Source: Escherichia phage LF82-4. Taken from it: a DNA stretch of 64,000 nt. The notes below the pieces were generated by a model. It was not told where the DNA came from. It was given only the letters and a program-made list of their open reading frames with translations, and did no database searches. Position 1 is the stretch's first letter. The number at the start of each line of letters is the position of its first letter. The position numbers and the translations under genes were made by a program. Shown here piece after piece: positions 10,712-29,237 of this stretch. Where the stretch lies: the sequence record PV660448; one strand, given 5' to 3'.

Positions 10712-11182
10712 TTAATCATGTTTCCACACCCCATCGGTATTTGACCAAAGTCGCTGATTATCTGATCCTCGCCACAGCTTTTTGGTCGGAAGATTTTTCT
10801 CATACTTCCCATCAATAATAACATCAACATATTTAAGCATTTTTAGTTGTTTAATATCTTCAAACTTATATCCTGTCCACAACCAAATGCTTTTATTGGG
10901 ATAAAGATTTTTAATAGTTTGAACCACAGAGTGAATCACATCTCGGTTATCAGGATAGAGAGGGTCACCTCCGGTTATAGTCAATCCTTCTATATAATCA
11001 TTATTCAAACATTCAATTAATTGTTCTAGTGTTTCACCAGTGAATGGAATACCATTTCTAGCATTCCATGTTGATTTATTATAACACCCTTCGCATTTAT
11101 GCAAACAACCTGTGACGAAAAGAACGACCCTACAACCAGGGCCATTCACAAAATCGCAAGGATAAAATCTATCATAATTCAT
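10712..11182 (-). CDS. nrdG: anaerobic ribonucleotide reductase activating protein NrdG (radical SAM)
   Basis: CxxxCxxC cluster (CLHKCEGC) near N-terminus; immediately downstream of nrdD with ATGA overlap. Confidence 0.9.
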   Translation of the reverse strand: MNYDRFYPCDFVNGPGCRVVLFVTGCLHKCEGCYNKSTWNARNGIPFTGETLEQLIECLNNDYIEGLTITGGDPLYPDNRDVIHSVVQTIKNLYPNKSIWLWTGYKFEDIKQLKMLKYVDVIIDGKYEKNLPTKKLWRGSDNQRLWSNTDGVWKHD

Positions 11183-12996
11183 TGGTGTTTAACCCTATGC
11201 ATGATTTCTTTATTTTTGCCGAGATTAAATCCACGTTCGTTCGGGTTCCCCAAATAACCGCACGTTCTTCTTATGGTGTTCATCTTTTTAGGATCAGTTT
11301 CTCCACAAACTGAACAAACAAATCCATTTTCAGTAGGAGTCATCTCATGGGTACTTCCACACGTAAAACATTTATCTACTGGCATGTTAACACCAAAATA
11401 ATCTAAATGTTGTGCAGCATAATCCCACACGGCCTCAAGACCTTTTAAGTTATTTTTCATATCAGGAAGTTCAACATAAGAAATGTGACCACCTGTCGCA
11501 ATGAAATGATATGGCGCTTCACGAGAAATCTTTTCAAACGGAGTAATATTTTCTTCTACTGAAACATGGAAACTATTAGTGTACCAGCCTTTATCAGTAA
11601 CATCCTTTACACTTCCATATTTTTCTGTATCAAGTTTACAGAAGCGATAACAAAGGTTTTCAGCAGGAGTAGAATACAAGCTAAAAGCAAATCCGGTTCT
11701 TTCAGTCCACTGTTTAAGACGAGCATTCATTTTAGTTAAAATTTCTTGCCCAATATCACGACCGACAAGAATATTCAATTCGTGAATACCAATGTATCCT
11801 AAAGACACTGAACTTCTACCGTTTTTAAATAACTCAATTATGTCGTCATCAGGTTTAAGACGAACCCCGAATGCACCTTCTTGGTAAAGAATAGGAGCAA
11901 CAGTCGCTTTAACACCCTTTAAAGAACTAATTCTACACATCAAGGCTTCAAAACACAGATCCATTCGTTCATTAAATAATTCGATAAATTTCTGTTCATT
12001 GAACTGTGTTCCAATATAAGAATCTAATGCGATACGAGGAAGATTCAGTGTTACAACACCAAGATTATTACGTCCATCAAGAATTTCATTACCAGTCGAA
12101 TCTTTCCATACGCTCAAGAAACTACGGCAGCCCATTGGAGAAACTGGAACTGAAGAACCGGTAATAGCTTTATTATTCTTAACAGAAATAATGTCAGGAT
12201 ACATTCTTTTGCTTGCACATTCTAACGCAAGTTGTTTAATATCATAGTTCGGATCATCTTTATAAAGATTAACACCTTCTTCAACAAACATAACAAGTTT
12301 AGGAAAAATAGGAGTTATTCCATCACGACCAAGACCTTTAATCCGATTTTTCAGAATTGCCTTCTGAATCATTCGTTCAGTCCAATCGGTTCCCGTACCA
12401 AATGTAATTGTTACAAAAGGCGTTTGTCCGTTTGAACTAAAGAGAGTATTTACTTCATATTCATAAGCTTGGAACGCATCGTATACGTCTTTTTCTGTTT
12501 TAGATTGGGCATAATTCAACGCATCAGCGATTTGCCATTTTTCTGCATCCTCAATATGTTTTGCATAGGTGCGTTTAACATAAGGAGAAAGAACTTTATC
12601 GACATTCGCAAATGTAGTTCCGCCATACTGATGTGAAGCAACTTGTGCAGTAATTTGTGCCATAATTGCAGTAGCAACACCAATCGATTTAGGCGTTTCA
12701 ATTTGAGCATTGCCTAATTTAAATCCATTCTCAAGCATCCCCTTTAAATCGACTAAACAGCAATTAGTAAATGGAAGAGCAGGAGAATAATCAATATCAT
12801 GCATATGAATGATTCCGCTTTCATGCGCATTCATAATAAAAGACGGGACCATATTTTTGGCAATGTGCTTAGACACAATACCAGCCATAAGGTCCCGTTG
12901 AGTTGGAAAAACACGAGAATCTTTATTAGCATTCTCGTTCAAAAGATCTTTATTAGTTTTATAAATTAATCCTTCAATTTCTTTTTCAATTTTCAT
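11179..12996 (-). CDS. nrdD: anaerobic ribonucleoside-triphosphate reductase NrdD
   Basis: 605 aa; C-terminal glycyl-radical motif RRTCGYLG and Zn ribbon CFTCG...CSVCG; single uninterrupted ORF. Confidence 0.95.
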   Translation of the reverse strand: MKIEKEIEGLIYKTNKDLLNENANKDSRVFPTQRDLMAGIVSKHIAKNMVPSFIMNAHESGIIHMHDIDYSPALPFTNCCLVDLKGMLENGFKLGNAQIETPKSIGVATAIMAQITAQVASHQYGGTTFANVDKVLSPYVKRTYAKHIEDAEKWQIADALNYAQSKTEKDVYDAFQAYEYEVNTLFSSNGQTPFVTITFGTGTDWTERMIQKAILKNRIKGLGRDGITPIFPKLVMFVEEGVNLYKDDPNYDIKQLALECASKRMYPDIISVKNNKAITGSSVPVSPMGCRSFLSVWKDSTGNEILDGRNNLGVVTLNLPRIALDSYIGTQFNEQKFIELFNERMDLCFEALMCRISSLKGVKATVAPILYQEGAFGVRLKPDDDIIELFKNGRSSVSLGYIGIHELNILVGRDIGQEILTKMNARLKQWTERTGFAFSLYSTPAENLCYRFCKLDTEKYGSVKDVTDKGWYTNSFHVSVEENITPFEKISREAPYHFIATGGHISYVELPDMKNNLKGLEAVWDYAAQHLDYFGVNMPVDKCFTCGSTHEMTPTENGFVCSVCGETDPKKMNTIRRTCGYLGNPNERGFNLGKNKEIMHRVKHQ

Positions 12997-13466
12997 TTTA
13001 AACTCTTTCTAAGCTGCTTTTTGAATGAAGCTATTAATTGTGTTTTAGTATCAGATTCATTATATTCAAATCCTCTTTGAAGCATCTCGGTCATCATTTC
13101 CTCTTTACCTAGTCTTGAGAACTCTTTAGTTTTGTCTGGAACAAAATTAGGATGGATATTATTATCAGAATAATCTTGTTTCAAATAAGCAAGAAGAGCT
13201 TCAAGCCATTCGAGGTAGTCGACATCACGTCCTTTAAGACCGGAACGGTTGAACTTATGCTTCATTTGACCTTCTGCTGCGTTGCACAGATTACAGAGTA
13301 ATCCACGAACTCTACCGGCTTTTGGCCCGTTTAATTCATGGTCGTGGTCAAGATGGTTACCTTGAACATCAGGGTCTAATTCACGGTGGCAAATAGGACA
13401 CTTACCATTCTGTGCATCATAAAATTTTTGTTTTTCTTCTTTATATTTTGCGCCTGATAATAACAT
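12993..13466 (-). CDS. 49: endonuclease VII (Holliday junction resolvase) gp49
   Basis: 157 aa; MLLSGAKYKEEKQKFYDAQNGKCPIC...HLDHDHELNGPKAG... near-identical to T4 endo VII from memory. Confidence 0.95.
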   Translation of the reverse strand: MLLSGAKYKEEKQKFYDAQNGKCPICHRELDPDVQGNHLDHDHELNGPKAGRVRGLLCNLCNAAEGQMKHKFNRSGLKGRDVDYLEWLEALLAYLKQDYSDNNIHPNFVPDKTKEFSRLGKEEMMTEMLQRGFEYNESDTKTQLIASFKKQLRKSLK

Positions 13467-13501
13467 GATAAACCCTTACCTTAAATAGATAAGGGTATTT
13501 A

Positions 13502-13927
13502 TTAACTTAAACGTCTTTCTAAATATTCAATGTATTCTGCGGCTGCTTGCATCAGGTTACCTTCATAGCCGTCGTTATTTTCTTGTCCAGCTAATTTAGC
13601 TAATGCATAAGAAATTCGTTCACCTTCGAATTCACCAAGTTTACTACCTAGCACATCAGCAATATCAGCCGAATCAATTTCTTCGAGTTCATCTATTGAA
13701 TGGGATTCCCAGAAGCACCAAAGAGAAGTATCACGGTCATAGATGCAAAGTTTCTCACCTGTGTTCAACATCACTTCGATAATGCCATGGTCGCCATAAC
13801 CATCTTCGGTAGTAGTACCAATTACCTTGAGGATTGTTCCTTTCTTTAATTCAGGAAACTTGACTTGTAGTTCTTCGTCTTCTTTAACAATCTTGAACCA
13901 TTTACCGCGAGTTTCAGAAATATTCAT
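13502..13927 (-). CDS. hypothetical protein (T4 pin position)
   Basis: ORF track 13502..14065, start moved to MNISETRGKWF (13927); position after gene 49 corresponds to T4 pin; assignment by synteny only. Confidence 0.4.
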   Translation of the reverse strand: MNISETRGKWFKIVKEDEELQVKFPELKKGTILKVIGTTTEDGYGDHGIIEVMLNTGEKLCIYDRDTSLWCFWESHSIDELEEIDSADIADVLGSKLGEFEGERISYALAKLAGQENNDGYEGNLMQAAAEYIEYLERRLS

Positions 13928-13928
13928 A

Positions 13929-14099
13929 TCAATATTCTCTATAAAAGTTACGATGAGAACGTTTAGCTTTGCGAAGCTGACGTTTAGTAGGACGAACTGT
14001 AAATAGTTGTCCAGAGAAAAAATTCGAATCGGTTTTAATAAGCAAATACCAATCATGCTTGCCATTTTTTAATAAACGGTACAATAATTTAACTTGCAT
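13929..14099 (-). CDS. hypothetical small basic protein
   Basis: ORF track 13929..14126; ATG 14099 with GGAAGAG RBS. Confidence 0.35.
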   Translation of the reverse strand: MQVKLLYRLLKNGKHDWYLLIKTDSNFFSGQLFTVRPTKRQLRKAKRSHRNFYREY

Positions 14100-14227
14100 A
14101 ATAATCTCTTCCCATTTCCATATCAATTAATTCATTTATTGAAGGTTCATCATAACATGGTTCTTCGTCGTTGTAAACCGTTTCGACGTCTGGCTCGACA
14201 GTCTCCCATCGAGCAGAATACCACGGT

Positions 14228-14563
14228 TTAACCCCGGAGTTTATTGAGCTCTTCATAATCAATCCAGGATTCTAGCCCTGACGGCAGGTCACATTCAATG
14301 TTCCACAGAAGCTCTTCAATGGCTTGCAGGCGATTATATTCTTCAACAGTAATAGTAACCATTGTTTCAGGCTTTTTAACCATCATGTCATTCATCAGAA
14401 TGTACAGATCTTCACAAACAGCCGGGTCGTCCCATGTCCATATTTCAGCATCTCGAACCAATGAAGTCGGAATAGAATTTAAAACTTCAAGCTTAGTAGG
14501 AGCGTCAGGACCGAGAAGAGTTGCTACAAATTTATATGCTTTGGCGAAATCAATATCGTTCAT
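14228..14563 (-). CDS. hypothetical protein
   Basis: 111 aa acidic ORF. Confidence 0.45.
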   Translation of the reverse strand: MNDIDFAKAYKFVATLLGPDAPTKLEVLNSIPTSLVRDAEIWTWDDPAVCEDLYILMNDMMVKKPETMVTITVEEYNRLQAIEELLWNIECDLPSGLESWIDYEELNKLRG

Positions 14564-14581
14564 TTAAAATATTCTCGCAGT

Positions 14582-14878
14582 TTATTGTTCTACCCAGGCA
14601 CAGGAAACTTCGAAATCAGGACCACCGTATTCCCAGTGATATTCACCAACAGGAATCCAGTCACCGTGCTCGTTTTCTTCGTAGTCTTCAGGTTCAAGAC
14701 CAACGAATCGCCATTGAACACCTATGATTCGATTACCCATTAATATACGAAATTCACCCCATGGATTATCGATAGCATATTGGATATCGTTCTTAGCACG
14801 AGAACACATTTCTTGATATAACAAAGCTTCTAATTCGCCCTGATCATAAGGGCCCGGGAAAGTTAAATCAATACTCAT
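14582..14878 (-). CDS. hypothetical protein
   Basis: 98 aa ORF. Confidence 0.45.
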   Translation of the reverse strand: MSIDLTFPGPYDQGELEALLYQEMCSRAKNDIQYAIDNPWGEFRILMGNRIIGVQWRFVGLEPEDYEENEHGDWIPVGEYHWEYGGPDFEVSCAWVEQ

Positions 14879-15138
14879 TTAAAATATTCTCGCAGTTGGT
14901 CAAATCCACCAATATGACTTCCATCAGGAGCAAATACTTGAGGCATAGTCAATCCAACTTGTGATTCACGTCCTAGTTTATTCAGAAGCTCGTCAATTTT
15001 TTCTTCATCAAATACACCTTTCTCTGGCATAACATTAATGAATTCGAATGGCTGTTTCTTAACAGTCAGCAATCGTTTCGCATTATCACAATAAATGCAT
15101 TTATGAATAGTAGAGTCATACCCGTACACTTTAAACAT
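14875..15138 (-). CDS. nrdC: thioredoxin/glutaredoxin NrdC
   Basis: MFKVYGYDSTIHKCIYCDNAKRLL with CxxC; 87 aa; matches T4 NrdC from memory. Confidence 0.9.
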   Translation of the reverse strand: MFKVYGYDSTIHKCIYCDNAKRLLTVKKQPFEFINVMPEKGVFDEEKIDELLNKLGRESQVGLTMPQVFAPDGSHIGGFDQLREYFK

Positions 15139-15544
15139 TATTTTTCCTTTCATCGATTAAATATGCAATGCCAAATACAATACATGTAATAAAACCTGTG
15201 ATACAGATAGAAACCAACAACACTGTACCAAAGAACCAAATCAAGTTATCTTTAGTAGTTTGTTTGATATCCATCTCACGAATTTCTATAGCTATCGTAT
15301 CACCTTTATTCAGAAGCGTATAAAACGACGGTGATACACGCCTGTCAAAAACTCGTCCTTGCTCATCTTTATAGACTGCAATAAATTCTAATTTAGAATA
15401 TTTTCCTGTAGATTGGCCTGAGATTAATTCCACTACCTCCACAGGAATTACTTTAGTTTCCATGTAAGTATTCTGACTGTTCCAAATGAATGGAATAACG
15501 GCAAAAACTAAAGCTGCGATAAAACAACGAAGGCTATATCTCAT
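15131..15544 (-). CDS. hypothetical membrane protein
   Basis: 137 aa, N- and C-terminal hydrophobic helices. Confidence 0.5.
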   Translation of the reverse strand: MRYSLRCFIAALVFAVIPFIWNSQNTYMETKVIPVEVVELISGQSTGKYSKLEFIAVYKDEQGRVFDRRVSPSFYTLLNKGDTIAIEIREMDIKQTTKDNLIWFFGTVLLVSICITGFITCIVFGIAYLIDERKNNV

Positions 15545-15849
15545 TATAATATTCTCTCAAATTTGTGGAAGCATTTACGGCATTTCAATTTCAAGTTATC
15601 AGTGGTCCAGTTAACCAGTTGGACTTGGATAGTTCCACATTCCGGGCATGGATGTTTTGCTGCTGATTTGGCAGCATTTTCACGTCGTTCAACCATTTTC
15701 ATTATTTCGTTCCATGCTGGAGGAACGAACTCTTCTTCACCGTGGATTTTATCTCGCTGAACAAATTCAATCTTTGAACTATCGTCAATAAACTTAACCA
15801 AGCCATGATTAGTGCTCATATCAATATCCTCTAAAAGACGTAGTTTCAT
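15544..15849 (-). CDS. hypothetical zinc-ribbon protein
   Basis: 101 aa; CPECG...CRKC four-cysteine motif. Confidence 0.5.
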   Translation of the reverse strand: MKLRLLEDIDMSTNHGLVKFIDDSSKIEFVQRDKIHGEEEFVPPAWNEIMKMVERRENAAKSAAKHPCPECGTIQVQLVNWTTDNLKLKCRKCFHKFERIL

Positions 15850-16799
15850 TATAACACCTCAATGGCATTTCGTAAACCGTCCGCTTTCGCATTCAGAGCT
15901 TTTAACGATTTAGTCTGTTCTTTAATCTGGGCTTCGACTTCTTTCAGACGAGATTTGAGATATTCACGTTCTTCGCTCAAGTTGTCAACTTTTTCTACTT
16001 TAGGTTCTTTAATAGTCTTAAGTTTATACTCGTTAGGGTTCTTCAGCTTAATTCGGGTGCGAGAACTGTATAACATTGAACCGTTATCTTCGGATTCGTC
16101 GAACGTTTCAACAACATCCATAGTCTCTAACAATGTAATAAGTTTATAAGACAATGAACGAACGGTTTTGTTATGCTTATTAATTTCTTCAGCTTTCATG
16201 GTACCGAGATTACGTGAGTAGTAATAAGGAACCTGGATATCAATTGATAATGATGCGTTACCATTACCGGTCGGTTTGAATACTGCAGTAACCCAATCTT
16301 TAACATGAACTTTATTTGTACGACCATCACCGCCCGTGAATAATTTACGAGAATGTTTAAAAAGCATATTCACTTGGTTATTGAATTCACAAGCAAATTT
16401 ATCAGCGAATTTAGTTTCAGGAATGGTAGATAACCAATCAGCCAAATGAGTCTTTTTAACATCATTAATAATAGTGAATTCAACCAAATCAGTTTTAGAT
16501 GTCACAGATTTAATAAAGCTCGGTTTCATAAAGTTTTTAATGTTATCGCGAGCTACAGTAGAAGATAATAAACGAGAACGTTTGAACCATTGAAGCAGTG
16601 TCCCTAATGAATGAGAATACGCATTCTGAGTATCTTTACAGATATGATTTTCTTGACCTGTGTATGTACCAAAATCGCGAAGAATACCACTTACTACATC
16701 TCGGTGTGGAACATCAAATCCTAGTGCACCAACAGCGCGCTGGGCACGAACGTTAGCGATAAGACCGGCAAAGTATTCAATGTAATGTGAACGTGTCAT
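15849..16799 (-). CDS. hypothetical protein with C-terminal coiled coil
   Basis: 316 aa; own early-type promoter upstream; heptad-rich C-terminus. Confidence 0.55.
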   Translation of the reverse strand: MTRSHYIEYFAGLIANVRAQRAVGALGFDVPHRDVVSGILRDFGTYTGQENHICKDTQNAYSHSLGTLLQWFKRSRLLSSTVARDNIKNFMKPSFIKSVTSKTDLVEFTIINDVKKTHLADWLSTIPETKFADKFACEFNNQVNMLFKHSRKLFTGGDGRTNKVHVKDWVTAVFKPTGNGNASLSIDIQVPYYYSRNLGTMKAEEINKHNKTVRSLSYKLITLLETMDVVETFDESEDNGSMLYSSRTRIKLKNPNEYKLKTIKEPKVEKVDNLSEEREYLKSRLKEVEAQIKEQTKSLKALNAKADGLRNAIEVL

Positions 16800-16823
16800 A
16801 ATATTTTCCTCTCGTTAAGATAG

Positions 16824-16854
16824 ATTTATTATACTCCAACCATCCTTGGTTGTA
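16824..16854. repeat. 31-nt exact repeat, copy 1 (promoter cassette)
   Basis: ATTTATTATACTCCAACCATCCTTGGTTGTA identical at 16824..16854 and 17844..17874; partial third copy near 38663..38690. Confidence 0.9.
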
Positions 16855-16857
16855 AAC
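16828..16857 (-). promoter_or_regulatory. early sigma70-type promoter with spacer stem-loop
   Basis: Minus strand GTTTACA, 17-nt spacer containing CAACCA/TGGTTG inverted repeat, TATAAT. Confidence 0.55.
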
Positions 16858-16861
16858 CGTT

Positions 16862-17821
16862 TTATGATTTTAATGCATTCATTGCATTAAAAAGTTTAGA
16901 GTACTGCAACTGGAGATTCGTTACAACACTTTGAGCATCACGAAGCTTAGCTTGTGCTTTGTCAAGTTCAACGGACAGTTGGTCTGCAGTAGCCTTGATT
17001 TGGTTGTAATGATAATCTTCGGCCGGAAGAAGGTCATTAGAAACATTTAGTTTTACTGCCGACAGTTTGCACACATTTGGCAAACCTTTAAACATACCGG
17101 GTTGTGTCGGAGAATATGCGCTTAGAACCTCTGCATTACCGACTGGTGTTGCTGTAATATTGCCTTCAAACAATGCATTTTCCTTTTTAAGATTTTGATA
17201 GTATTCAGAGTCTTTGTGCCACCATGGCGCAGGAACCTTTTTACCAATAGATACACGAGCCTGGATAGCGATATGGCCCTTATTCTTGATAGGGTCGATA
17301 ATATTAAGCTCACGAGAATAAATTGCTTTAATTTGGTGAATATTATCACCTAACACTTCCAACGCTTGGTGGAATACACGAGCAACGTTATCGTTCTTAG
17401 GTTTATATGTAAGAGTGAACTCGTTCTCACTGATAACCATGATTTCTAACTTATCGTAAGTATATTTCAAATGTTTCATGTTAATTGCTTGAGGACGAAT
17501 ACGAGAAGCAATGGCCATCAGATTGTTAAGGTTATTTCGGAACTGTTTAGCGAAATATTGTCCTTCACCGCCGATACAAAAATTACGAAGTTTCTGTTTG
17601 GCTAATAAACGGCTGAACTCACCATTTTTAATGAACTCTTTAACGGGTGTGTTAGTAATGCATTCAAATTGAGTAAACATACGAGAATTAATCCCATAAT
17701 ATGAACAGATTTCCTCAATCTCTTCAGGAGTCTTTACAGGCATACGGATAGGATTAGGTCCTGGAGTATATGCGTTCGAGGTAAATTCTTTGATAAGTTC
17801 TCTACGTGTAATAAAAGCCAT
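16862..17821 (-). CDS. hypothetical protein with C-terminal coiled coil
   Basis: 319 aa; preceded by duplicated promoter cassette. Confidence 0.55.
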   Translation of the reverse strand: MAFITRRELIKEFTSNAYTPGPNPIRMPVKTPEEIEEICSYYGINSRMFTQFECITNTPVKEFIKNGEFSRLLAKQKLRNFCIGGEGQYFAKQFRNNLNNLMAIASRIRPQAINMKHLKYTYDKLEIMVISENEFTLTYKPKNDNVARVFHQALEVLGDNIHQIKAIYSRELNIIDPIKNKGHIAIQARVSIGKKVPAPWWHKDSEYYQNLKKENALFEGNITATPVGNAEVLSAYSPTQPGMFKGLPNVCKLSAVKLNVSNDLLPAEDYHYNQIKATADQLSVELDKAQAKLRDAQSVVTNLQLQYSKLFNAMNALKS

Positions 17822-17843
17822 TTTATATTCCTCATGTTGAAAA

Positions 17844-17874
17844 ATTTATTATACTCCAACCATCCTTGGTTGTA
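17844..17874. repeat. 31-nt exact repeat, copy 2 (promoter cassette)
   Basis: Identical to 16824..16854. Confidence 0.9.
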
Positions 17875-17877
17875 CAT
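17848..17877 (-). promoter_or_regulatory. early sigma70-type promoter (duplicate of 16828..16857 core)
   Basis: Shares 31-nt identical core with 16824..16854; -35 variant TGTACA. Confidence 0.5.
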
Positions 17878-18872
17878 CATTCCTTAAGAAGTTTTACTAC
17901 TTGAATAAGATTAGCTCGTTCTGTTTTATTTTTACCGTTTAAGCCTGCTAATCGTGAGATTTCATCGTCAGTCTGTTGAATAGTTACATTAAGTTCGTTA
18001 ATCAAAGCTTCAAAGTATTTGATTTGCTCAGCATGTTTTGATTCAAATTTCTGAACCGGAATAACGTCTTGGTTCAGTCCATCAATAAGGTCTTTAAGAG
18101 CATCTTCTTGGTTGATATCATATTCAACTTCCTTTATTTCTTCAACGAGCTCGTCTTTATATCTAACGTCTTTTAGTCCTGGTGCTGGTCCTGAAATCTC
18201 TTCTTTAAGAGTACAAACATACCCAATACGGTATCCAATGCCGTCTCGCTTGATATCAACTTCGTCGATAAATCCACAATGTTTAAGTCCAGAGCCGATT
18301 ATGTCAAAATATCCTTGACGACGTCCTTCAAACGTTACACGAACTACTAAGACAGTTTTGCCACCGACCTTTTGAAGCTCACATTTATAAAAGTCCGTTG
18401 AACCTGAATAACGTGGATGAGTTTTAAAGTTCATCTGACGATCTAGGCCCATTTGTAAACGTGCTGTTACGGCCATAAAACGTGTTTGGTTCTCGTTAAG
18501 ATGAGCAACAATCCATTTCAAAGGCATTTTACACTGTTCACGACCGAACAAATCAGTACGTCCTAGATTACGCAGGATGTTGTTAGAGTTAATCATCGAC
18601 AGAACGTTAAGTTTATTCAACGCGCTGAAGATTCCGTCAGCCATTGATTTTCCATAACCTTTACACGCTTTAATAAGTGCTCGCGGCAGATTAGTATAGA
18701 TTTCAGACGGCATATGAAAATCAAATTTACTAGTCAGTAATTGATGAACTTGGATAGCAATTTGCTCATAATTAAGTGCTCTGCGATCGTTATGGTCTTT
18801 AAACCACACTTTAATCTGTGAAGCACATAAACCGTTAATTTCATGTTTTACCGCATCAGATGTAATGCTCAT
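17877..18872 (-). CDS. hypothetical protein with C-terminal coiled coil
   Basis: 331 aa. Confidence 0.55.
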   Translation of the reverse strand: MSITSDAVKHEINGLCASQIKVWFKDHNDRRALNYEQIAIQVHQLLTSKFDFHMPSEIYTNLPRALIKACKGYGKSMADGIFSALNKLNVLSMINSNNILRNLGRTDLFGREQCKMPLKWIVAHLNENQTRFMAVTARLQMGLDRQMNFKTHPRYSGSTDFYKCELQKVGGKTVLVVRVTFEGRRQGYFDIIGSGLKHCGFIDEVDIKRDGIGYRIGYVCTLKEEISGPAPGLKDVRYKDELVEEIKEVEYDINQEDALKDLIDGLNQDVIPVQKFESKHAEQIKYFEALINELNVTIQQTDDEISRLAGLNGKNKTERANLIQVVKLLKE

Positions 18873-18934
18873 AACTATTTCCTCAGATTGAATTGGAACT
18901 CAAAACCATTATAACCCGTCCTTGGGTAAAGCGT

Positions 18935-19462
18935 TTATGCGTGAACCGTCTTTAAACGTTCTTCAAATTTCCGAAGAGTACTAATACGTTCTGCTTTCTG
19001 TTTTGTATAGTTTGCAATACGTTCTGAAGTGAGAGCGTATCGTTCGTTTACTGTTTCTTTCATGAAGTCAGGGATTTCACGAGAAGCTTTAATTTCATCA
19101 AACTTGTCGAGTACTGCCTGGTCTTCAGCGATTAAATTTTCGTACATCTCGATATCTTTCTTGATAAACTCGATATCTTCCTGGGTTACTTTGGATAAAC
19201 GAGACGCTTTATCCTTTTTGTACTGCTCGTTAGTTTCACGAGACCAGAATAATGTACGTTTTTTGTTAGTGTTTTTGTAGACTTCCACAATTCCAACTGA
19301 ATCGATGATAACAATCCAATTCCAGCGAGATTTGAAAATCTGACCTCCGTCCACGGTAATCTCGTTATCATAAGCAACGTCATTAAAGAACTTGCTCTGT
19401 GCTTCAGATTTAAATTTACCGTCGTTATAATTTACCAGGTTGAAAATATCTTTAGCGTTCAT
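18935..19462 (-). CDS. hypothetical protein
   Basis: 175 aa, charged helical. Confidence 0.5.
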   Translation of the reverse strand: MNAKDIFNLVNYNDGKFKSEAQSKFFNDVAYDNEITVDGGQIFKSRWNWIVIIDSVGIVEVYKNTNKKRTLFWSRETNEQYKKDKASRLSKVTQEDIEFIKKDIEMYENLIAEDQAVLDKFDEIKASREIPDFMKETVNERYALTSERIANYTKQKAERISTLRKFEERLKTVHA

Positions 19463-21010: not shown

Positions 21011-21040
21011 TTTTGACCCCCTAAAGGGCCCGAAGGCCCT
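21011..21040 (-). terminator. terminator-like hairpin after NTase-fold gene
   Basis: AGGGCC-CGAA-GGCCCT stem-loop 3 nt after stop; weak U tract. Confidence 0.4.
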
Positions 21041-21042
21041 TA

Positions 21043-22032: not shown

Positions 22033-22502
22033 TTAGCCTTATATTCAAGAGTAGGACAGACTTTTTCTTTATGAGCTTTAAGGTATTCACCTATTAATGA
22101 TTTCTTACGTTCAATAGGCTCAAGTCCATTTTTAATTCGTTCTTGGTTTTGTGCAATGAGCTCAATTTCTTTATAATATTTTCTGTCGTTATATTTGTCT
22201 AACAACCAAGACGGACCAATTACCAACCCGGTAGCAATAAAAGCCATGACTGCTACAATTAAAATGCCTACACCAATTGAGGCTGGAACTAATGTCCATA
22301 GACTGCTAAAAACAAAGAATTTAGTTAAAATTTCCTGGCCAATGATTGTGACTGCTGCTAAAATCGCAAATCCAATAATTGAAGCAGCCAATACCGGGAT
22401 TAACGTTTTCCAAAAATAAGCACACAACGTTTTAGGACGATTCCATGTACTATTGAATGCAGCATAAATTTTATAGTGCCAAGAGTTTTCATTGATAATC
22501 AT
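22029..22502 (-). CDS. hypothetical membrane protein
   Basis: 157 aa with three or more hydrophobic helices. Confidence 0.5.
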   Translation of the reverse strand: MIINENSWHYKIYAAFNSTWNRPKTLCAYFWKTLIPVLAASIIGFAILAAVTIIGQEILTKFFVFSSLWTLVPASIGVGILIVAVMAFIATGLVIGPSWLLDKYNDRKYYKEIELIAQNQERIKNGLEPIERKKSLIGEYLKAHKEKVCPTLEYKAK

Positions 22503-22511
22503 AATAATTCC

Positions 22512-23048
22512 TTATTTCAAAGTCGGGATAATAGAATCAAGATAAGCTTTAAGAGCAACTGCTTCGTCTTTGGTAAACGTAGTAATATGTGAACGTAAAT
22601 CATCAATTTGACGAATAGTTACGACATCACCATCTTCATAAGAATTCCGTACATCCAACGTCGTGGTATAGTTTAGAGCTACCGGATTAATAATAAAAGC
22701 ACCACGTCCTTTACCCCATTGAAGTTTAGCCTTTTCGGGTGTTTCAGGTGTTTCAGAATTCAAGAATTCTTTAACCTTATCAACGAATGTTTTCCAATTA
22801 TCAATAGAAAGACACATATCTTCAGTTTCGATATTAGCACCACGTTCCCCACGATAAAAACGAACTTGTAGCTCATTGCCAATACTAGTTACGCTATTAA
22901 ATCCTGAAGGAGCATAAGATAAAATCTCTTCCAATTCCATAGGAAGAATAGTAATACTATCATCTTCTTGAGTGAAAAGATAGGTATTACCGAGTTTTTC
23001 GATAGTCAAGTCACCGAACATTTCAGTTGTTTCAATTACAGTTTTCAT
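22512..23048 (-). CDS. hypothetical protein
   Basis: ORF track 22512..23060; ATG 23048 preferred. Confidence 0.5.
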   Translation of the reverse strand: MKTVIETTEMFGDLTIEKLGNTYLFTQEDDSITILPMELEEILSYAPSGFNSVTSIGNELQVRFYRGERGANIETEDMCLSIDNWKTFVDKVKEFLNSETPETPEKAKLQWGKGRGAFIINPVALNYTTTLDVRNSYEDGDVVTIRQIDDLRSHITTFTKDEAVALKAYLDSIIPTLK

Positions 23049-23393
23049 ATTATTCACCAATTAAAGTTTCAACAAAATTCACCAAATCATTCTGACGAGC
23101 ATCAACTTGCTTTTCATAGAAGTCTCCGCTATCATTTACTGCGTGATAAGCTACATCATTTAAATCAGTATCGGCTTCACGCAAGTCATGGATAAGGTCC
23201 ATCAATTTATTAGCTTGTTCACGGGTCATTTTACCATACTCGTTTCAATAAGATTCACTATGCCGTTTACCATGTTATAAGTAAACATCGGATAATTGTA
23301 TTGTACTACAACATAAGCGATAAGCAAAAGTTTCATTTTGTTCTCCGTTCGTTTTGGTAGGACTACTATAACATAGTCCTACCAAGATGTAAA

Positions 23394-23627
23394 CTACCGA
23401 TTGTGTTTTAAATGTTGATAAAGTTCTTCAACTTGTTTAGGGTCCAAAACAATTAGGTCATTTTCTTGGCGAAGATAAAGCCATCCCTTATCCCCAGGAC
23501 CATTTTTACAAAACATCGCCACCATATCATCATCTTCAGCGCTTTCAGGTAAAAGTTCAAGCACACCGTCTTCAGATTTTCCAGTATAATCGTAAAGCAT
23601 AATATCCTCACATAATCTCGTTAACAT
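23394..23627 (-). CDS. hypothetical protein
   Basis: 77 aa acidic ORF. Confidence 0.4.
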   Translation of the reverse strand: MLTRLCEDIMLYDYTGKSEDGVLELLPESAEDDDMVAMFCKNGPGDKGWLYLRQENDLIVLDPKQVEELYQHLKHNR

Positions 23628-23826
23628 ACATTTGCAATTCGGTGTGAGCGTCGGCCATCTTTTTCATAGCTCTGTTAATGTCGATGTCTCCATCTTCGCA
23701 ACCATGAGCATTTTCCCAATCAGATACCGCATTAGCGTACTCTTCAATCAAAAACATCAACTTAGAAATCTTTTCTTTACGTGTCATAACGTTCTCCTCT
23801 AGTAAGTAAGGTCTACTATAACACAA
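23608..23826 (-). CDS. hypothetical protein
   Basis: 72 aa ORF. Confidence 0.4.
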   Translation of the reverse strand: MCYSRPYLLEENVMTRKEKISKLMFLIEEYANAVSDWENAHGCEDGDIDINRAMKKMADAHTELQMYVNEIM

Positions 23827-23852
23827 CCTGAGGAGAAGTAAACTGCTAAATG

Positions 23853-23882
23853 CAAAAAAGCCCCAACCTTTCGGAAGGGGCT
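23853..23882 (-). terminator. intrinsic terminator (repeated 24-nt hairpin, copy 1)
   Basis: AGCCCCAACCTTTCGGAAGGGGCT with GNRA-type loop, followed on minus strand by UUUUUU. Confidence 0.6.
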
Positions 23883-23886
23883 TTGA

Positions 23887-24444
23887 TTAGTTTTTGTAAT
23901 ATCGTAAAGGGTTGATATGGAATGAAAGCATTGCGCGTGGAATAGGACGTCTCAAAAGACTCTTAAGTTTCCAACCACAGTAAACACGCAGATAAAATGT
24001 AATACCACCAACCTTAAGATAAGGTATAGCAGCGAATAATCCCCATGCAGACTCGTTCCAAACTAAAAGATATCCATGATGTGCTGGGTCAGGAGATCCT
24101 GATTTAGTTTCGGCGTTGCCTTTATAGTGCCATTTTGATGAAGCTTCGCGACCTAAAACATGATACGAAAAATTATATGCTTTGTTGCGCCATAACCAAG
24201 CTACGCGTTGAGCATATTTACCTATAACAGGAATTTTACGTATTTTAGACCAACGTTCAACATGGCCACGGTCACCATCGATAGGATTATCGTAAGTCAT
24301 CATCCAGTCAAAGCCATAAGGTAGTTTACCGGTTTTTTCACTATGGAATGGAACTACAAATGGTGCTAGAATAATTGCTAAAATCGCTGCGATCCAATCT
24401 ATAGGAACAAGAACAACCCAACTTACATATTTTAAAAATTTCAT
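23887..24444 (-). CDS. hypothetical membrane protein (T4 rI.-1 position)
   Basis: 185 aa; N-terminal transmembrane helices; own late promoter TATAAATA upstream and hairpin terminators on both sides. Confidence 0.55.
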   Translation of the reverse strand: MKFLKYVSWVVLVPIDWIAAILAIILAPFVVPFHSEKTGKLPYGFDWMMTYDNPIDGDRGHVERWSKIRKIPVIGKYAQRVAWLWRNKAYNFSYHVLGREASSKWHYKGNAETKSGSPDPAHHGYLLVWNESAWGLFAAIPYLKVGGITFYLRVYCGWKLKSLLRRPIPRAMLSFHINPLRYYKN

Positions 24445-24462
24445 ATATCCTCTCTTAGTTTA

Positions 24463-24470
24463 CAAGGATA
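24463..24470 (-). promoter_or_regulatory. late promoter TATAAATA for membrane protein gene 23887..24444
   Basis: Minus strand TATAAATA 19 nt upstream of ATG 24444. Confidence 0.55.
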
Positions 24471-24474
24471 TTTA

Positions 24475-24505
24475 TACAAAAAGCCCCAACCTTTCGGAAG
24501 GGGCT
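24475..24505 (-). terminator. intrinsic terminator (repeated 24-nt hairpin, copy 2)
   Basis: Identical 24-nt hairpin directly after rI stop, U tract follows. Confidence 0.6.
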
Positions 24506-24511
24506 AGTAAA

Positions 24512-24814
24512 TTAGATAGATGTAGGCTCTAATTTTATTTTCATGAACTCGGCAAATTGTCTGGCGGTTTTTATGCCTTGTTCATGACATTCAAATGCAT
24601 CATCACAGGGGCTATTTTTGTAATGCTTTGCCATATACTTATAGAATTTTTCAGAGTTCTCGACATTTTGAATTTCAAACAAAGTATATACGTTTTTAAT
24701 CCCTGATTCCATAAAGTTATCAAAGTATGGGTCAATATGTGCAGTACCAACGATAGGAGTTGTTGCTGCAAAAAACCCCAGCATCGCCATGACAGCTATC
24801 GCTCTTAAGGCCAT
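24512..24814 (-). CDS. rI: lysis inhibition regulator rI (antiholin)
   Basis: 100 aa; signal-anchor MALRAIAVMAMLGFF...; motifs DPYFDNFMESGI and KNSPCDD...C match T4 rI from memory. Confidence 0.8.
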   Translation of the reverse strand: MALRAIAVMAMLGFFAATTPIVGTAHIDPYFDNFMESGIKNVYTLFEIQNVENSEKFYKYMAKHYKNSPCDDAFECHEQGIKTARQFAEFMKIKLEPTSI

Positions 24815-24826
24815 ATAGGCCTCCTG

Positions 24827-25039
24827 TTAATTTTGGCCAGTATTTATTTTTCGCCTTTGGACGGCCTTAACATCTGTGAGGTATTTTTCCAGCTTGCGCT
24901 TGCGTGTATAATCAGCTTTAGAACCAGTTTGACGGATATCCTCGTTTAAATGAGAAATAGAATGTCCTAATTCTCTTCGGATTTCATCCAATTGGGTTAC
25001 AGTAAGATTACGAAGTTGTCTTTCGTTTAATTGCTGCAT
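24827..25039 (-). CDS. hypothetical protein (rI.1 position)
   Basis: 70 aa basic ORF between tk and rI. Confidence 0.45.
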
Positions 25040-25063
25040 ATATACCTCTTGGTTAGATATTAG

Positions 25064-25071
25064 TATTTATA
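25064..25071 (-). promoter_or_regulatory. late promoter TATAAATA upstream of rI.1/rI
   Basis: Minus strand TATAAATA 25 nt upstream of ORF 24827..25039. Confidence 0.5.
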
Positions 25072-25648
25072 ACAACCCTGTCAAATCATTCCAATGCTTC
25101 CGGCATAATGACACATATCTATCGGTATCACCAATTTCAATTTGACTGCCATCTGTAATTGGAAGTCCGTCTTCCGTGACTCTAGCTACCATTGTGGCCT
25201 TTTTACCACAATGACAGACACCTTTAAGTTCAACAAGCTTATCGGCAATAGCCATTAATGCTTGAGAACCTTCAAATAGATTACCTTTAAAATCTGTTCG
25301 TAGTCCATATGCCATTACCGGCACATTGTATACGTCAACAATACGACTAAGTTGATACACCTTTTCAGTAGTTAAGAACTGAGCTTCGTCAACAAATACG
25401 CAGTGAATATCCTTTTGTGCTGCAGCCCATTTATAGAATTCAAAGATATCCATGTCTTTTGTAATTATATTGGCATCCTGACGAATACCAATACGAGAGA
25501 CTATTTCACCTTTTGAATTACGAGTATCAATAGCCGGTTTAAGAACTAATACACCCATGCCACGTTCTTTATAGTTATGTGCGGCAGTAAGTAATGAAGC
25601 AGACTTACCAGCGTTCATAGCGGCATAGGTAAAAATTAAACTAGCCAT
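25067..25648 (-). CDS. tk: thymidine kinase
   Basis: 193 aa; P-loop AAMNAGKSASL; C-terminal zinc motif CHCGKKA...CRKH. Confidence 0.95.
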   Translation of the reverse strand: MASLIFTYAAMNAGKSASLLTAAHNYKERGMGVLVLKPAIDTRNSKGEIVSRIGIRQDANIITKDMDIFEFYKWAAAQKDIHCVFVDEAQFLTTEKVYQLSRIVDVYNVPVMAYGLRTDFKGNLFEGSQALMAIADKLVELKGVCHCGKKATMVARVTEDGLPITDGSQIEIGDTDRYVSLCRKHWNDLTGLL

Positions 25649-25838
25649 AAGAGTCCTTAGTTAAATTTTCTAAATATGTTTCTAAATCATTTTCAGCTTT
25701 ATTGATAGATTTTACTAATTCGTAGTATGTTTCGGCATCTCCATATTCAGAAGATATTTCAAAAGACAAATCCTTTTCTAAACTAATAATTTCACCAACT
25801 AAAAATAATATTTCGTTCTTTTGTTCGCGAGTAATCAT
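25641..25838 (-). CDS. hypothetical protein
   Basis: 65 aa acidic ORF. Confidence 0.4.
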   Translation of the reverse strand: MITREQKNEILFLVGEIISLEKDLSFEISSEYGDAETYYELVKSINKAENDLETYLENLTKDSYG

Positions 25839-26026
25839 AATGAATTTATATAATCAATAAGTTCTTGCTCTTTATCGTCAAAATCTTTACACAGTTCTTC
25901 GTATTCGTCAGTATTAAAAGGACCGCATTCATTACAAACTTTTTCCAATTCGCTATTTTTATCCATAACTTCGTGGATAAGAGAAAAGAGTTTGTCTTTT
26001 TGTTCTTTACTTAAACTCATAACCAT
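25835..26026 (-). CDS. hypothetical protein
   Basis: 63 aa acidic ORF. Confidence 0.4.
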   Translation of the reverse strand: MVMSLSKEQKDKLFSLIHEVMDKNSELEKVCNECGPFNTDEYEELCKDFDDKEQELIDYINSL

Positions 26027-26244
26027 GTCACCTTTAAACAGTATTCTTCTACATGCTGTTTACGACCTTTCTTATCAATAAAGGTATATTCAACGAATGT
26101 TCCAATGTAGTCTTTATCGACATCATGTGGACTATTAATTGGACATTTAGTACGACAAATGCGTTCCCATTGACGAATAATTACTGCTTTATTTTTAGGA
26201 TCAAACGGATGTGGGTAATGCACATTCATAATAATGGTTCCCAA
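26017..26244 (-). CDS. hypothetical protein
   Basis: 75 aa ORF. Confidence 0.4.
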   Translation of the reverse strand: MGTIIMNVHYPHPFDPKNKAVIIRQWERICRTKCPINSPHDVDKDYIGTFVEYTFIDKKGRKQHVEEYCLKVTWL

Positions 26245-26723
26245 TCAACAATCACAATTTCTAGTTTAGTGGAATATGTATCAAGAATTTCTTCAATGAT
26301 ATCCCAGTTTCCACCACCTATACCTGCACCAATTCTTGGCATGTAAATCACAGGCTTTGCTATCTTATTCTTTCCGAATTTATTTAATTCTATTATACAA
26401 TTCATTAAAGCAGAGTACTCAAAATTAGGTCCGGGCTCAAACTGTGTATAAAGATTAAAGCAATAAGCTTTATGGGTCTTAAAATATTTTTCATAAACCG
26501 AATAGGAACCGAGTTTAGACTCGTCTCCGAATTCGGTTTGAAGTTTATCGGCTTCTAAAATTTTTGGATAAGCCTTTGCTAATTGTCCTGCTACACCAGC
26601 GCCCATTGTATGAAAACAATTGCACCCATGAGCAATATTATTACCTTTAGAAAACAGGGCGACAATATCGCCCTTGATATAGTTTTTAATCACTTGCTGC
26701 AAGTCCTCTAGTATAAGAGTCAA
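26226..26723 (-). CDS. putative macro-domain-like protein (ADP-ribose binding/processing)
   Basis: 165 aa; glycine-rich motifs MGAGVAGQLAKAYP and PRIGAGIGGGNW resemble the two signature loops of macro domains; assignment by motif only. Confidence 0.45.
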   Translation of the reverse strand: MTLILEDLQQVIKNYIKGDIVALFSKGNNIAHGCNCFHTMGAGVAGQLAKAYPKILEADKLQTEFGDESKLGSYSVYEKYFKTHKAYCFNLYTQFEPGPNFEYSALMNCIIELNKFGKNKIAKPVIYMPRIGAGIGGGNWDIIEEILDTYSTKLEIVIVDWEPLL

Positions 26724-27033
26724 CTAGACGGTCCACCATAGAATTGCATGCTGCCTTATCTTTAGGTTCCGCCACCGAGCATTCTAATATTTGCCATTTT
26801 TTATAGTATCTTTTAATTAAGGTAGACGCCTTGAACCTACTAGACGCCCCATCTTTTTCTCCGTCTTTATATGCATATAACAATTTTTGTGAAAAATCTA
26901 CTTTACACTCTTGACTTTTACCACAATAATCAGACGCCGTTCTGTTTGTATACTCCGTTACATCAGTATATGTAGTATTAGCAAGAGCGTTAAATGAAAC
27001 CAAGCCAACTATTAAAGCCAACATTTTGGTCAT
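26686..27033 (-). CDS. hypothetical secreted protein (T4 vs position)
   Basis: 115 aa with N-terminal signal peptide MTKMLALIVGLVSFNALA; several cysteines. Confidence 0.45.
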   Translation of the reverse strand: MTKMLALIVGLVSFNALANTTYTDVTEYTNRTASDYCGKSQECKVDFSQKLLYAYKDGEKDGASSRFKASTLIKRYYKKWQILECSVAEPKDKAACNSMVDRLVDSYTRGLAASD

Positions 27034-27572
27034 TCTTTTATTTCCAGTAGTTTATTTGATTTAAGGTAATTAGCCTTTTCTAGGACTTCAGAAGCATATT
27101 TACTTCCAGCACTTGTCTTCCATCCAGCATTATATGAGGATATGGCTTTCCTTATATCCCCGTTATGTATATTTAACCAATAAGAAAATTCGATATAAGC
27201 CCATCTTGCTGAATTAGACCGCTTAGATAGCATTTTCTTAATTTGGGCATCAGTCATATTATAACCAAGCTGGTTAATTCTTGCCCTCATTGTTGGTAGA
27301 TAATTTTGGAACATTCCATACGCATGGTGACCTTTCTTATCTTTAAGATTAATACCGGCAGATGATTCCTGCCATAGTATTGCGGCCATTATGTATCCAA
27401 GTCCTTTCTTATGCATATTTTCATGCGTTTTAAATTTTCCATCCTTAGAAAACTGTTCCCCAAACTGATAAGCATAATTCAAGTTATCGAGTTGGACATT
27501 ACTAAAAGTATGCTCGGAGCTATGTGCTGATAACGAAAGAGCAAATAGACCAGCGAGTAGTGCTTTTCTCAT
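27030..27572 (-). CDS. putative periplasmic lytic transglycosylase
   Basis: Signal peptide MRKALLAGLFALSLSAHS; catalytic-type ES motif (ILWQESSAG) and AYNAG-like motif typical of SLT domains. Confidence 0.65.
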   Translation of the reverse strand: MRKALLAGLFALSLSAHSSEHTFSNVQLDNLNYAYQFGEQFSKDGKFKTHENMHKKGLGYIMAAILWQESSAGINLKDKKGHHAYGMFQNYLPTMRARINQLGYNMTDAQIKKMLSKRSNSARWAYIEFSYWLNIHNGDIRKAISSYNAGWKTSAGSKYASEVLEKANYLKSNKLLEIKE

Positions 27573-27580
27573 GTTTACCT

Positions 27581-28039
27581 CTAGATTTTAATCACTGCTT
27601 TAGAAGCTTTTCCTGGTAGTCGTTTACTGTTAATAATAGCCATTCTGCATTGAAGAGTCTTCATTTTGAATGCTGGATTTTCGCGACAAACTGTAAGTCC
27701 TAACCAAAGATTTCCATCAGTTATTTCTAAACGGCCTGGGCGATATTCGACACCTTCGACAAAATCTTCATCAACATCTGGACGTGCCGGCATTGATAAA
27801 AATTCTGCAACTTCTTTAGCATGATTTTTTACTTTATGAAATAATTCAAAAACGTAATTCTCATCTATTTCTCTCTGGATGGCACGATCTAAGAGATGTT
27901 GAGAATACTTGATATGAAAGCCTGGTAGTCCAAGAGACTTTGCAGCATCTTTTATACCGGCATTTATTTTGCGGAACTCCGTTTCAAAGATTCGACGGAG
28001 TTTATTACGGCGGATAAAAACTTCCGAATTGATAGTCAT
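27581..28039 (-). CDS. regB: endoribonuclease RegB
   Basis: Start MTINSEVFIRRNKLRR...; C-terminus LQCRMAIINSKRLPGKASKAVIK matches T4 RegB from memory. Confidence 0.9.
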   Translation of the reverse strand: MTINSEVFIRRNKLRRIFETEFRKINAGIKDAAKSLGLPGFHIKYSQHLLDRAIQREIDENYVFELFHKVKNHAKEVAEFLSMPARPDVDEDFVEGVEYRPGRLEITDGNLWLGLTVCRENPAFKMKTLQCRMAIINSKRLPGKASKAVIKI

Positions 28040-28095
28040 TTTGATTTCTCCTCTAGTTGACAAGTCTATAGTAACACAACTAGAGGAGAAGTAAA

Positions 28096-28395
28096 CTACT
28101 CTTTGAAAGGAATTAACTTTTTAACTGCTTTAGATACTTCGTCACGAACCTGATGGAAGTTCTTGAGCTGTTCAAGGCGTTGTTCGTAATACGCAATCTC
28201 ATCTTCTTCAAGACAATCGTCAGCGTCTTCTTTCAGATATGCCTTGTACTCATTAAAGAGGGCCCATAGGCGGTTCTCAAAGTCATCAAGGCTTTGAATT
28301 TTCTTGTGCTTCGGAACAAGGCCAAAAGGATTGCTTTCAGTTATGCGTCTAGATGCTTCATAATGAGTTCCAAAGCCTGATAGGATTTGAGCCAT
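28096..28395 (-). CDS. hypothetical protein
   Basis: 99 aa ORF. Confidence 0.45.
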
Positions 28396-28661
28396 TAGTA
28401 TTTTTCCTCAGGTCGAAATACTGCACGACAGGCCCACATGCTGGCTTCTTTTAGATGTTGCTTAGCATACTTAAGAGCCTGTACTGCATCCATATCTTCT
28501 TTGGTTTGTTGCTCTGTTTCATTTTCTTTCAAGATATATGCTTCTTCAATCAGAGCATCAAACAACAATCCAAGACGGACTTCTGCATCTTTAATAGCGT
28601 TCACTTTACCGATTTTATCGTCGGTATGCGGCTTGTAGCCTTTGATGTCTTCAATCGACAT
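28395..28661 (-). CDS. hypothetical small protein at T4 vs.4 (Acb2) position
   Basis: ORF track 28395..28829 truncated to ATG 28661 (GAGGAAA RBS); 88 aa helical protein; assignment by gene order after regB only. Confidence 0.35.
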
Positions 28662-28875
28662 AAGGAATTTCCTCATCGGTGACAAGGTCATATTCGACCA
28701 ATTGGATAGGCTCGTTAATACCATATCCACGTACAGTGATATCGGTTGTCGGATATTTTCCAGTAATATCACCCATTCTAAATGCTTCAGTGAATGATTG
28801 CTCACCTGAGCAACTAAACCAGGCGGCAAAACATTTTAAAACATCTTCAGACCCTTCTATAATCAATTTAGCCAT
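28651..28875 (-). CDS. hypothetical protein
   Basis: 74 aa acidic ORF. Confidence 0.4.
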   Translation of the reverse strand: MAKLIIEGSEDVLKCFAAWFSCSGEQSFTEAFRMGDITGKYPTTDITVRGYGINEPIQLVEYDLVTDEEIPYVD

Positions 28876-29237
28876 TATAGACTCTCAGTAAAGGTACGAG
28901 CGATAACGTCGCGCTGCTGTTCCGGAGTCAGAGAGTTAAAGCGAACTGCATAACCGGATACACGAATGGTCAGCTGAGGATATTTTTCCGGATGCTTAAC
29001 TGCATCTTCCAGAGTTTCACGACGCAGAACGTTAACGTTCAGGTGTTGACCACCTTCAATTTTAACTTTAGGTTGATGTTCAATTTCAATTTCACGGGCA
29101 TGTAAACCGTAGAAAATTTCCGGGTCTACAATAGCGTCTTCTTTAAAAGTCTTAGAGACGATAATCCGGGCTTGAGTACCATCTTCAAAATAAATAGTGC
29201 CTTTATGTACACCTTCAAGAATTTGATATGCTTTCAT
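28875..29237 (-). CDS. autonomous glycyl radical cofactor (GrcA/YfiD-like)
   Basis: 120 aa; C-terminal glycyl-radical motif [13 protein letters not shown] as in pyruvate formate-lyase C-terminus; T4 is known to encode such a homolog. Confidence 0.8.

Follow-up and report, generated by a model that had tools for sequence, protein, structure and literature searches.

A host-like grcA tract in vs.6, the glycyl-radical cofactor gene of a T4-like coliphage, and its relation to the phage NrdD/NrdG system

Introduction

In this article, I discuss a small gene, vs.6, in a stretch of 64,000 nucleotides from Escherichia phage LF82-4 (sequence record PV660448; this whole stretch is called the window below), and the close resemblance of part of that gene to grcA of the bacterial host. 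The nearest described relatives of its product are the spare parts of pyruvate formate-lyase (PFL), the glycyl-radical enzyme that oxygen cleaves at Gly734. The part of PMC8683613 that treats them, citing Wagner et al. 2001, gives phage T4 Y06I and bacterial YfiD (also called GrcA) as the only two spare parts validated biochemically, and describes how PFL-activase installs the radical on either protein, whose complex with oxygen-cleaved PFL regains activity in vitro (PMC8683613). Of the two parts of YfiD, the disordered residues 1-60 assist binding and activation, and residues 61-127 form a structured plug.

Cyanophage psbA is the other described system to which vs.6 can be likened, since in both cases the genome of a lytic phage encodes its own version of a labile host protein, one that can no longer be replaced after shut-off, and gene segments are exchanged with the host. 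Intragenic recombination between host and phage was reportedly found in psbA and in other host-derived auxiliary metabolic genes by Zeidner in 2005 and by Sullivan in 2006. In vs.6, by contrast, the exchange is limited to one structural domain of a T-even coliphage protein of 120 amino acids, and the donor of the tract can be traced to a host species, Escherichia coli or Klebsiella pneumoniae. A literature search found no paper on the vs.6 DNA mosaic or on host tracking, older T4 reviews and Wagner 2001 lying outside that search.

A first-pass annotation of the window had read vs.6, together with the class III ribonucleotide reductase (RNR) gene nrdD and the activase gene nrdG, as a single anaerobic nucleotide metabolism set that includes a spare part for oxygen-damaged host glycyl-radical enzymes. 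The evidence below supports that interpretation as essentially right, with the word "set" as an overstatement, and the genes themselves are already known, NrdD, NrdG and Vs.6/Y06I being textbook T4 genes. The main value of the locus thus lies not in its gene set but in a host-identical tract of 169 nt within vs.6. I put at roughly 85% the probability that the window holds two separate known glycyl-radical functions and that vs.6 is both a spare part and a mosaic, in which an old, phage-specific 5' half is joined to a 3' tract overwritten from host grcA by homologous recombination.

A phage gene with a host-like domain

The product of vs.6 matches the Pfam family Gly_radical (PF01228) with 67 bits against a cut-off of 22 and the GrcA structure entry 6OWR with an E-value of 1.9e-42, and PflB residues 696-759 can be aligned to it as well. 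HMMER alignments to 6OWR and 1H16 give the position of Gly95 (Table 1), and in the alignments to GrcA and to the PflB C-terminus the glycine context, the loss of which had been named in advance as the outcome that would refute the assignment, is fully retained. The earlier statement that the open reading frame (ORF) ends in RVSGYAVRF needs an adjustment: the motif is there, but it is followed by 20 further residues and is not terminal. Residues 61-120 of Vs.6 are identical to residues 68-127 of E. coli GrcA, this motif included. Along its whole length the protein is identical to T4 Vs.6 at 113 of 120 positions (94%, without gaps), and the gene order vs.8-vs.7-vs.6-vs.5-vs.4 in the tk-vs-regB-denV early region matches that of T4 and of Shigella phage SHSML-52-1, which bears out the claim that T4 encodes such a GrcA homolog, the ORF in the window being the ortholog of T4 vs.6/Y06I. 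The match to phrog_1209 spans residues 1-120 at 210 bits; PHROGs lists this family as of unknown function, and the ortholog is called "autonomous glycyl radical cofactor GrcA" in RefSeq.

The comparison with the two validated proteins divides along the length of the gene. T4 Vs.6 has the same length, the same neighbours and a host-like 3' tract of its own; of the seven substitutions that set it apart, six lie in the N-terminal half, T4 has R73H, and both synonymous changes within the tract are private to the phage studied here. Like E. coli GrcA (6OWR), Vs.6 is a small stand-alone protein, of about 14 kDa, and the N-terminal halves of the two can be aligned, but that of Vs.6 is only about 35% identical, is 7 residues shorter and lacks the bacterial start sequence, and Vs.6 is expressed from phage signals inside a phage operon.

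At the DNA level the division is abrupt. Nucleotides 1-178 of the gene are about 50% identical to E. coli grcA, in a poor DNA alignment, and after a sharp break nucleotides 179 to about 347 show two differences from the common E. coli allele, both synonymous, at positions 28977 and 28965 of the window. The G+C content at third codon positions (GC3) rises from 0.22 in the 5' half to 0.39 in the tract, as compared with 0.43 in the E. coli tract and 0.24-0.31 in neighbouring phage genes. Between the window and T4, the synonymous divergence (dS) is 0.449 in the 5' half and 0.049 in the tract; at the rate of the 5' half about 14 synonymous differences would be expected in the tract, and 2 are seen (binomial P of about 1e-5). 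An alignment of the two phages contains an island of 97-100% identity that coincides exactly with the tract, the flanking DNA standing at 62-90%. The N-terminal half, for its part, has a ratio of nonsynonymous to synonymous divergence (dN/dS) of about 0.12 between window and T4, a sign of purifying selection.

Apart from the tract, the 50 kb scanned contain no E. coli-like DNA: a megablast search of positions 10000-34999 of the window against 5426 complete E. coli genomes returned the tract as the sole match, at one place per genome and always in grcA, and the same search with positions 35000-59999 gave no match. The genes pflB and tdcE were considered as donors and rejected, given that the single megablast match in each genome is grcA and that PflB reaches 82% identity in DNA and about 78% in protein. 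At the other edge of the tract, the final 15 or so nucleotides of vs.6 carry differences from grcA that are common within phage lineages and that provide vs.5 with a Shine-Dalgarno sequence (GAGAG) and a stop/start overlap (TAATG). As judged from these signals, the 3'-end changes would serve vs.5 translation, and the vs.5 Shine-Dalgarno sequence and overlap may set the 3' limit of the tract.

Table 1. Features of the window discussed in the text (aa, amino acids; dN, nonsynonymous divergence).
Feature	Position	Strand	Evidence
vs.6 (T4 Y06I ortholog), 120 aa, autonomous glycyl-radical cofactor of the GrcA/YfiD type	28875..29237	-	PF01228, 6OWR, phrog_1209
Phage-type 5' half of vs.6, codons 1-60	29058..29237	-	GC3 and dS as in text; dN 0.056 against T4
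Host-derived tract, 169 nt, encoding the structured PFL-inserting domain	28891..29059	-	2 differences from common E. coli grcA allele
Phage-specific 3' end of vs.6, ACTGAGAGTCTATAATG	28873..28890	-	Lineage-shared changes relative to grcA
Glycyl-radical motif RVSGYAVRF of Vs.6, residues 92-100	28938..28964	-	Translation, alignments
Gly95 codon of vs.6	28953-28955	-	Aligns to GrcA Gly102 and PflB Gly734
GAGG Shine-Dalgarno sequence of vs.6 (4 nt before its ATG; overlaps the TGA stop of vs.7)	29242..29245	-	Sequence
Sigma-70-like promoter match, TTTACG-17-TATAAT with TG, upstream of vs.8	30536..30564	-	Consensus match only
nrdG, radical-SAM (S-adenosylmethionine) activase of class III RNR, 156 aa	10712..11182	-	TIGR02491, PF13353, PF04055
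nrdD, anaerobic ribonucleoside-triphosphate reductase, 605 aa, uninterrupted	11179..12996	-	PF13597, NF006732
Glycyl-radical loop RRTCGY of NrdD, residues 576-581, within NTIRRTCGYLG	11254..11271	-	Translation
Gly580 codon of nrdD	11257-11259	-	Translation
vs.4 ortholog	28395-28661	-	Acb2_Tad1_hairpin
vs.8 ortholog	29549-30088	-	phrog_2 (weak)
tRNA-Met(CAT)	40491-40562	-	

The tract across phages and hosts

The same tract recurs in 638 phage records at an identity to E. coli grcA of at least 95%, the T4 reference being among them (98.4% over 185 nt), and in three T4-like contigs from IMG/VR it is identical to an E. coli allele at 169 of 169 positions. Seven T-even phages differ from E. coli grcA at 1-6 of 171 nt and from other enterobacteria at 15-33. 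Synonymous divergence tells the same story: measured against E. coli, dS in the tract is 0.049 for the window, 0 for T4 and 0.024 for RB32, as compared with 0.40 for Citrobacter, 0.57 for K. pneumoniae and 1.2 for Salmonella. Host grcA sequences were drawn in part from the PLSDB "plasmid" records CP125156.1 and NZ_AP026896.1, which are in fact whole chromosomes, of K. pneumoniae (5.4 Mb) and of Aeromonas caviae (4.9 Mb), respectively; filed as plasmids, such records are a trap for users of the collection.

The Klebsiella T4-like phage TU02 (Jiaodavirus) provides a second case with the same breakpoint, at codon 61. Its GC3 rises from 0.22 to 0.64 in the tract (0.66 in K. pneumoniae), the tract has the Klebsiella-type residues LLDAVEH, and it differs from K. 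pneumoniae grcA at 9 of 171 nt, as against 25 for E. coli and 19-35 for other genera. When the K. pneumoniae tract was used as the query, 106 phage records, apparently of Klebsiella phages, matched at 95-99%, and 527, apparently of E. coli phages, at 80-90%. In its 5' half, the gene of the window is homologous to that of TU02 (dN 0.20), and neither resembles host grcA there; the event is therefore a replacement of the tract and not the capture of a whole gene. Since the composition and divergence of the tract follow the hosts, the direction is from host to phage. One might object that the DNA identity reflects convergence or constraint, through codon bias or mRNA structure, or an assembly artefact, and the protein sequence of the domain is indeed invariant from E. 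coli to the Pasteurellaceae; but among bacteria with this same protein sequence the DNA differs at 14-38 of 171 nt, the GC3 of the tract follows each host and not the phage, and the tract stands in more than 630 independent phage genomes, T4 reference included, so that I give this objection next to no weight.

Taken together, these patterns in the sequences point to gene conversion from host to phage that has affected the structured domain repeatedly. Host grcA would have overwritten the 3' tract of vs.6 at least twice, once with an E. coli type in Tequatrovirus and Mosigvirus and once with a K. pneumoniae type in Jiaodavirus, and homologous recombination of the T4 kind with fragments of host DNA would maintain the tract. 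Whether the process is a running one, such that recurrent recombination in lytic infection keeps the plug domain of vs.6 in step with the grcA of the local host while the N-terminal half evolves independently, is to my mind an even bet.

The competing history has a single capture of E. coli grcA, spread among the T-even genera by recombination between phages, a second capture in Klebsiella phages, and no conversion continuing today. T-even phages are highly mosaic (PMC2993671), just two host types are seen, and one interior site (G to A) is common to two Mosigviruses, all of which such a history would accommodate. Yet at either end the island of identity between the window and T4 stops no more than about 10 nt from where host homology stops, nearly every interior difference is private, in a star-like pattern with the E. 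coli allele at its centre, several phages stand at 0-1 nt from E. coli, and the Klebsiella phage shares the breakpoint at codon 61. Separate host-templated events are favoured because the island coincides with the limits of host homology and because the private differences are star-like, and I consider the single-capture history possible but doubtful.

Several observations do weigh against recurrent conversion, and they should be set beside that judgement. Phage searches with the grcA tracts of Salmonella enterica and Enterobacter sichuanensis found no record at 95% or above, so the host types remain E. coli in Tequatrovirus and Mosigvirus and K. pneumoniae in Jiaodavirus, and in Tequatroviruses that were isolated on Salmonella or Yersinia the tract is still of the E. 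coli type, as the single-capture history would have it. The homologs in T5-like phages, Pseudotevenvirus, Aeromonas phages and Erwinia jumbo phages show no tracking at the DNA level (64-84% identity), and their proteins differ from host GrcA at several residues. From these non-tracking homologs and from the Salmonella and Yersinia isolates with the E. coli type it follows that an exact match to the host is not required for the gene to be retained.

Among the IMG/VR sequences, two T4-like contigs (L118, 174 kb, and L119, 142 kb) have LLDAVEH in the plug with only 84% DNA identity to the sampled host grcA genes, and these could be an older conversion or a matching of the host at the protein level. 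A third contig, L130 (19 kb), is 91% identical to grcA of Yersinia (Y. artesiana) and was not counted: the gene looks bacterial, with a VRVEGG context of the bacterial type and a match that begins only at residue 24, and the contig is probably a piece of host DNA or the flank of a prophage.

What the phage spare part would do

Homologs of vs.6 are present in 1588 phage records, from T4-like, T5-like, Aeromonas and Erwinia jumbo phages. Of the conserved repair strategy that the first-pass annotation proposed, the conservation is thus borne out, and the repair is an in vitro report for T4 Y06I. In the scheme that I favour, the host PFL-activase (PflA) would place the radical on Gly95 of Vs.6, the structured C-terminal domain (about residues 61-120) would replace the glycyl-radical domain that PFL loses on oxygen cleavage, and the N-terminal half would help docking and activation. 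Because the phage shuts off host transcription and no further GrcA is made, the phage copy would supply the spare part, and in the micro-oxic gut it would keep PFL running and thereby sustain acetyl-CoA, ATP and formate.

Two points weigh against this assignment of function. I know of no in vivo phenotype for vs.6. In addition, residues 18-120 score 158.6 bits with the bacterial GrcA equivalog model TIGR04365, the cut-off of which is 170; the shortfall is due to the diverged N-terminal half, and the protein is therefore filed as a phage Vs.6 branch and not as a bacterial GrcA equivalog. That same divergence is what a decoy would exploit, in which Vs.6 titrates PFL-activase or occupies PFL and redirects the flux of pyruvate, the N-terminal half changing the outcome relative to GrcA. 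This half governs binding and activation in YfiD and is the poorly conserved part of Vs.6, and its purifying selection is compatible with a phage-specific property; but T4 Y06I, with its near-identical sequence, is reported to reconstitute PFL activity in vitro (PMC8683613), and in its catalytic plug Vs.6 does not differ from GrcA, which makes a decoy improbable.

A separate system in nrdD and nrdG

The two nrd genes are what they were first called. ORFs for both are present, both pass their equivalog models and the RRTCGY loop is confirmed: NrdG scores 199 bits with TIGR02491 (cut-off 126) and has the CxxxCxxC cluster as C26LHKC30EGC33, read from the translation, and NrdD scores 572 bits with PF13597, 905 with NF006732 (cut-off 657) and 567 with TIGR02487 (cut-off 326), with a four-Cys cluster, CFTCGS...CSVCGE, upstream of its glycyl-radical loop. 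NrdD is 100% identical to that of phage LF82-1. The pair is the phage class III RNR and its radical-SAM activase, for the synthesis of deoxyribonucleoside triphosphates without oxygen. It resembles the T4 pair in architecture, in the Gly580 loop, in the C-terminal Cys cluster and in the CxxxCxxC motif of the activase, and it differs in that nrdD is uninterrupted here, that of T4 carrying a group I intron. Going by the title of Young et al. 1996, as listed in PMC13450708, Gly580 of T4 NrdD is the same position. An Rfam scan of the window found no group I intron, and nrdD is without intron or homing endonuclease. In the close relative SHSML-52-1 a homing endonuclease gene splits nrdD, and Yersinia phage PST has nrdD-A and nrdD-B with I-TevII.

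Do these genes and vs.6 belong together? Such an arrangement would have Vs.6 work within the nrd module, activated by the phage NrdG or repairing oxygen-cleaved phage NrdD, and it can call on the presence of three glycyl-radical system proteins in one phage, on the co-occurrence of a vs.6 homolog and nrdD in each of the phages that could be checked (IME-CF2, Cognac and PMBT31), and on Aeromonas phage AsFcp_2, in which the homolog adjoins nrdC and nrdH. The proteins themselves speak otherwise. Similarity between Vs.6 and the phage NrdD is not detectable (E 2.4), and a role for Vs.6 as a spare part for NrdD was rejected on this ground; the Vs.6 loop, RVSGYAV, is that of PFL, as opposed to RRTCGYLG in NrdD; loop sequence sets the specificity of the activase, PFL activating enzyme modifying an RVSGYAV peptide and not a class III RNR loop peptide (PMC13450708); and the last 60 residues are those of host GrcA. 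The genes also lie far apart, the distance of 17 kb given at first holding from nrdG (17.7 kb), with the start of nrdD only 15.9 kb from vs.6, and about 35 unrelated genes fill the interval, including endonuclease VII, the nrdC cluster, tk, vs and regB. Across phages, nrdD is the more widespread gene, with 2925 records as compared with 1588 for vs.6. Vs.6 and NrdD/NrdG are not one functional module, because Vs.6 has no similarity to NrdD and its loop is of the PFL type, and a Vs.6 that serves the nrd module is very improbable indeed.

The only plausible coupling of Vs.6 with NrdD would be metabolic: T4-type NrdD uses formate, and the formate made by PFL could be the reductant of this formate-type class III RNR. 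The class III RNR of E. coli takes its hydrogen from formate, to go by Mulliez 1995 as listed in PMC13450708, and the possibility has been raised that formate-dependent RNR uses up PFL formate (PMC13450708).

Genome context and neighbouring genes

The 3 kb around vs.6 are 100% identical to Escherichia phage LF82-1 and 98.6% to SHSML-52-1, both of them T4-like and the latter a Mosigvirus (Straboviridae, Tevenvirinae), and the window is a T4-like Mosigvirus. Every gene between 10712 and 29237 lies on the minus strand, nrdG, nrdD and vs.6 included. The promoter match upstream of vs.8 (Table 1) is a possible start of a vs.8-vs.7-vs.6-vs.5 transcript, as judged by its consensus, in a region where a promoter scan found matches no more numerous than expected by chance.

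Two genes downstream of vs.6, the vs.4 ortholog matches Pfam Acb2_Tad1_hairpin, a sponge fold directed against Thoeris and the cyclic-oligonucleotide-based antiphage signalling system (CBASS); as called mechanically, its ORF has 144 aa from a TTG and is longer than the annotated 88-aa gene. The vs.8 ortholog has a weak match, over residues 45-137, to phrog_2, terminase large subunit (E 6e-5), which may be a shared ATPase or nuclease-like segment, or chance. The vs.6 homolog adjoins tRNA genes in T5-like phage HdH2 and in Aeromonas phage 44RR2.8t. The sole tRNA gene in the 64 kb of the window is tRNA-Met(CAT), and at the corresponding place SHSML-52-1 has tRNA-Arg and tRNA-Met.

Discussion

The tract shows that T-even phages, which contain hydroxymethylcytosine and degrade the DNA of their host, acquire host chromosomal sequence through homology, and it provides a handle for measuring gene conversion from a host to a lytic phage by means of synonymous markers placed in grcA. 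It also splits Vs.6 into one part that tolerates no drift from the host and an N-terminal half that is phage-specific. If recurrent recombination does keep the tract in step with the host, a gene of a virulent phage would evolve in concert with a host gene, carrying the E. coli or the K. pneumoniae allele according to its host, the N-terminal half would be an independently evolving, phage-specific module for docking and activation, and vs.6 would offer a tractable natural reporter of the flow of DNA from host to T4.

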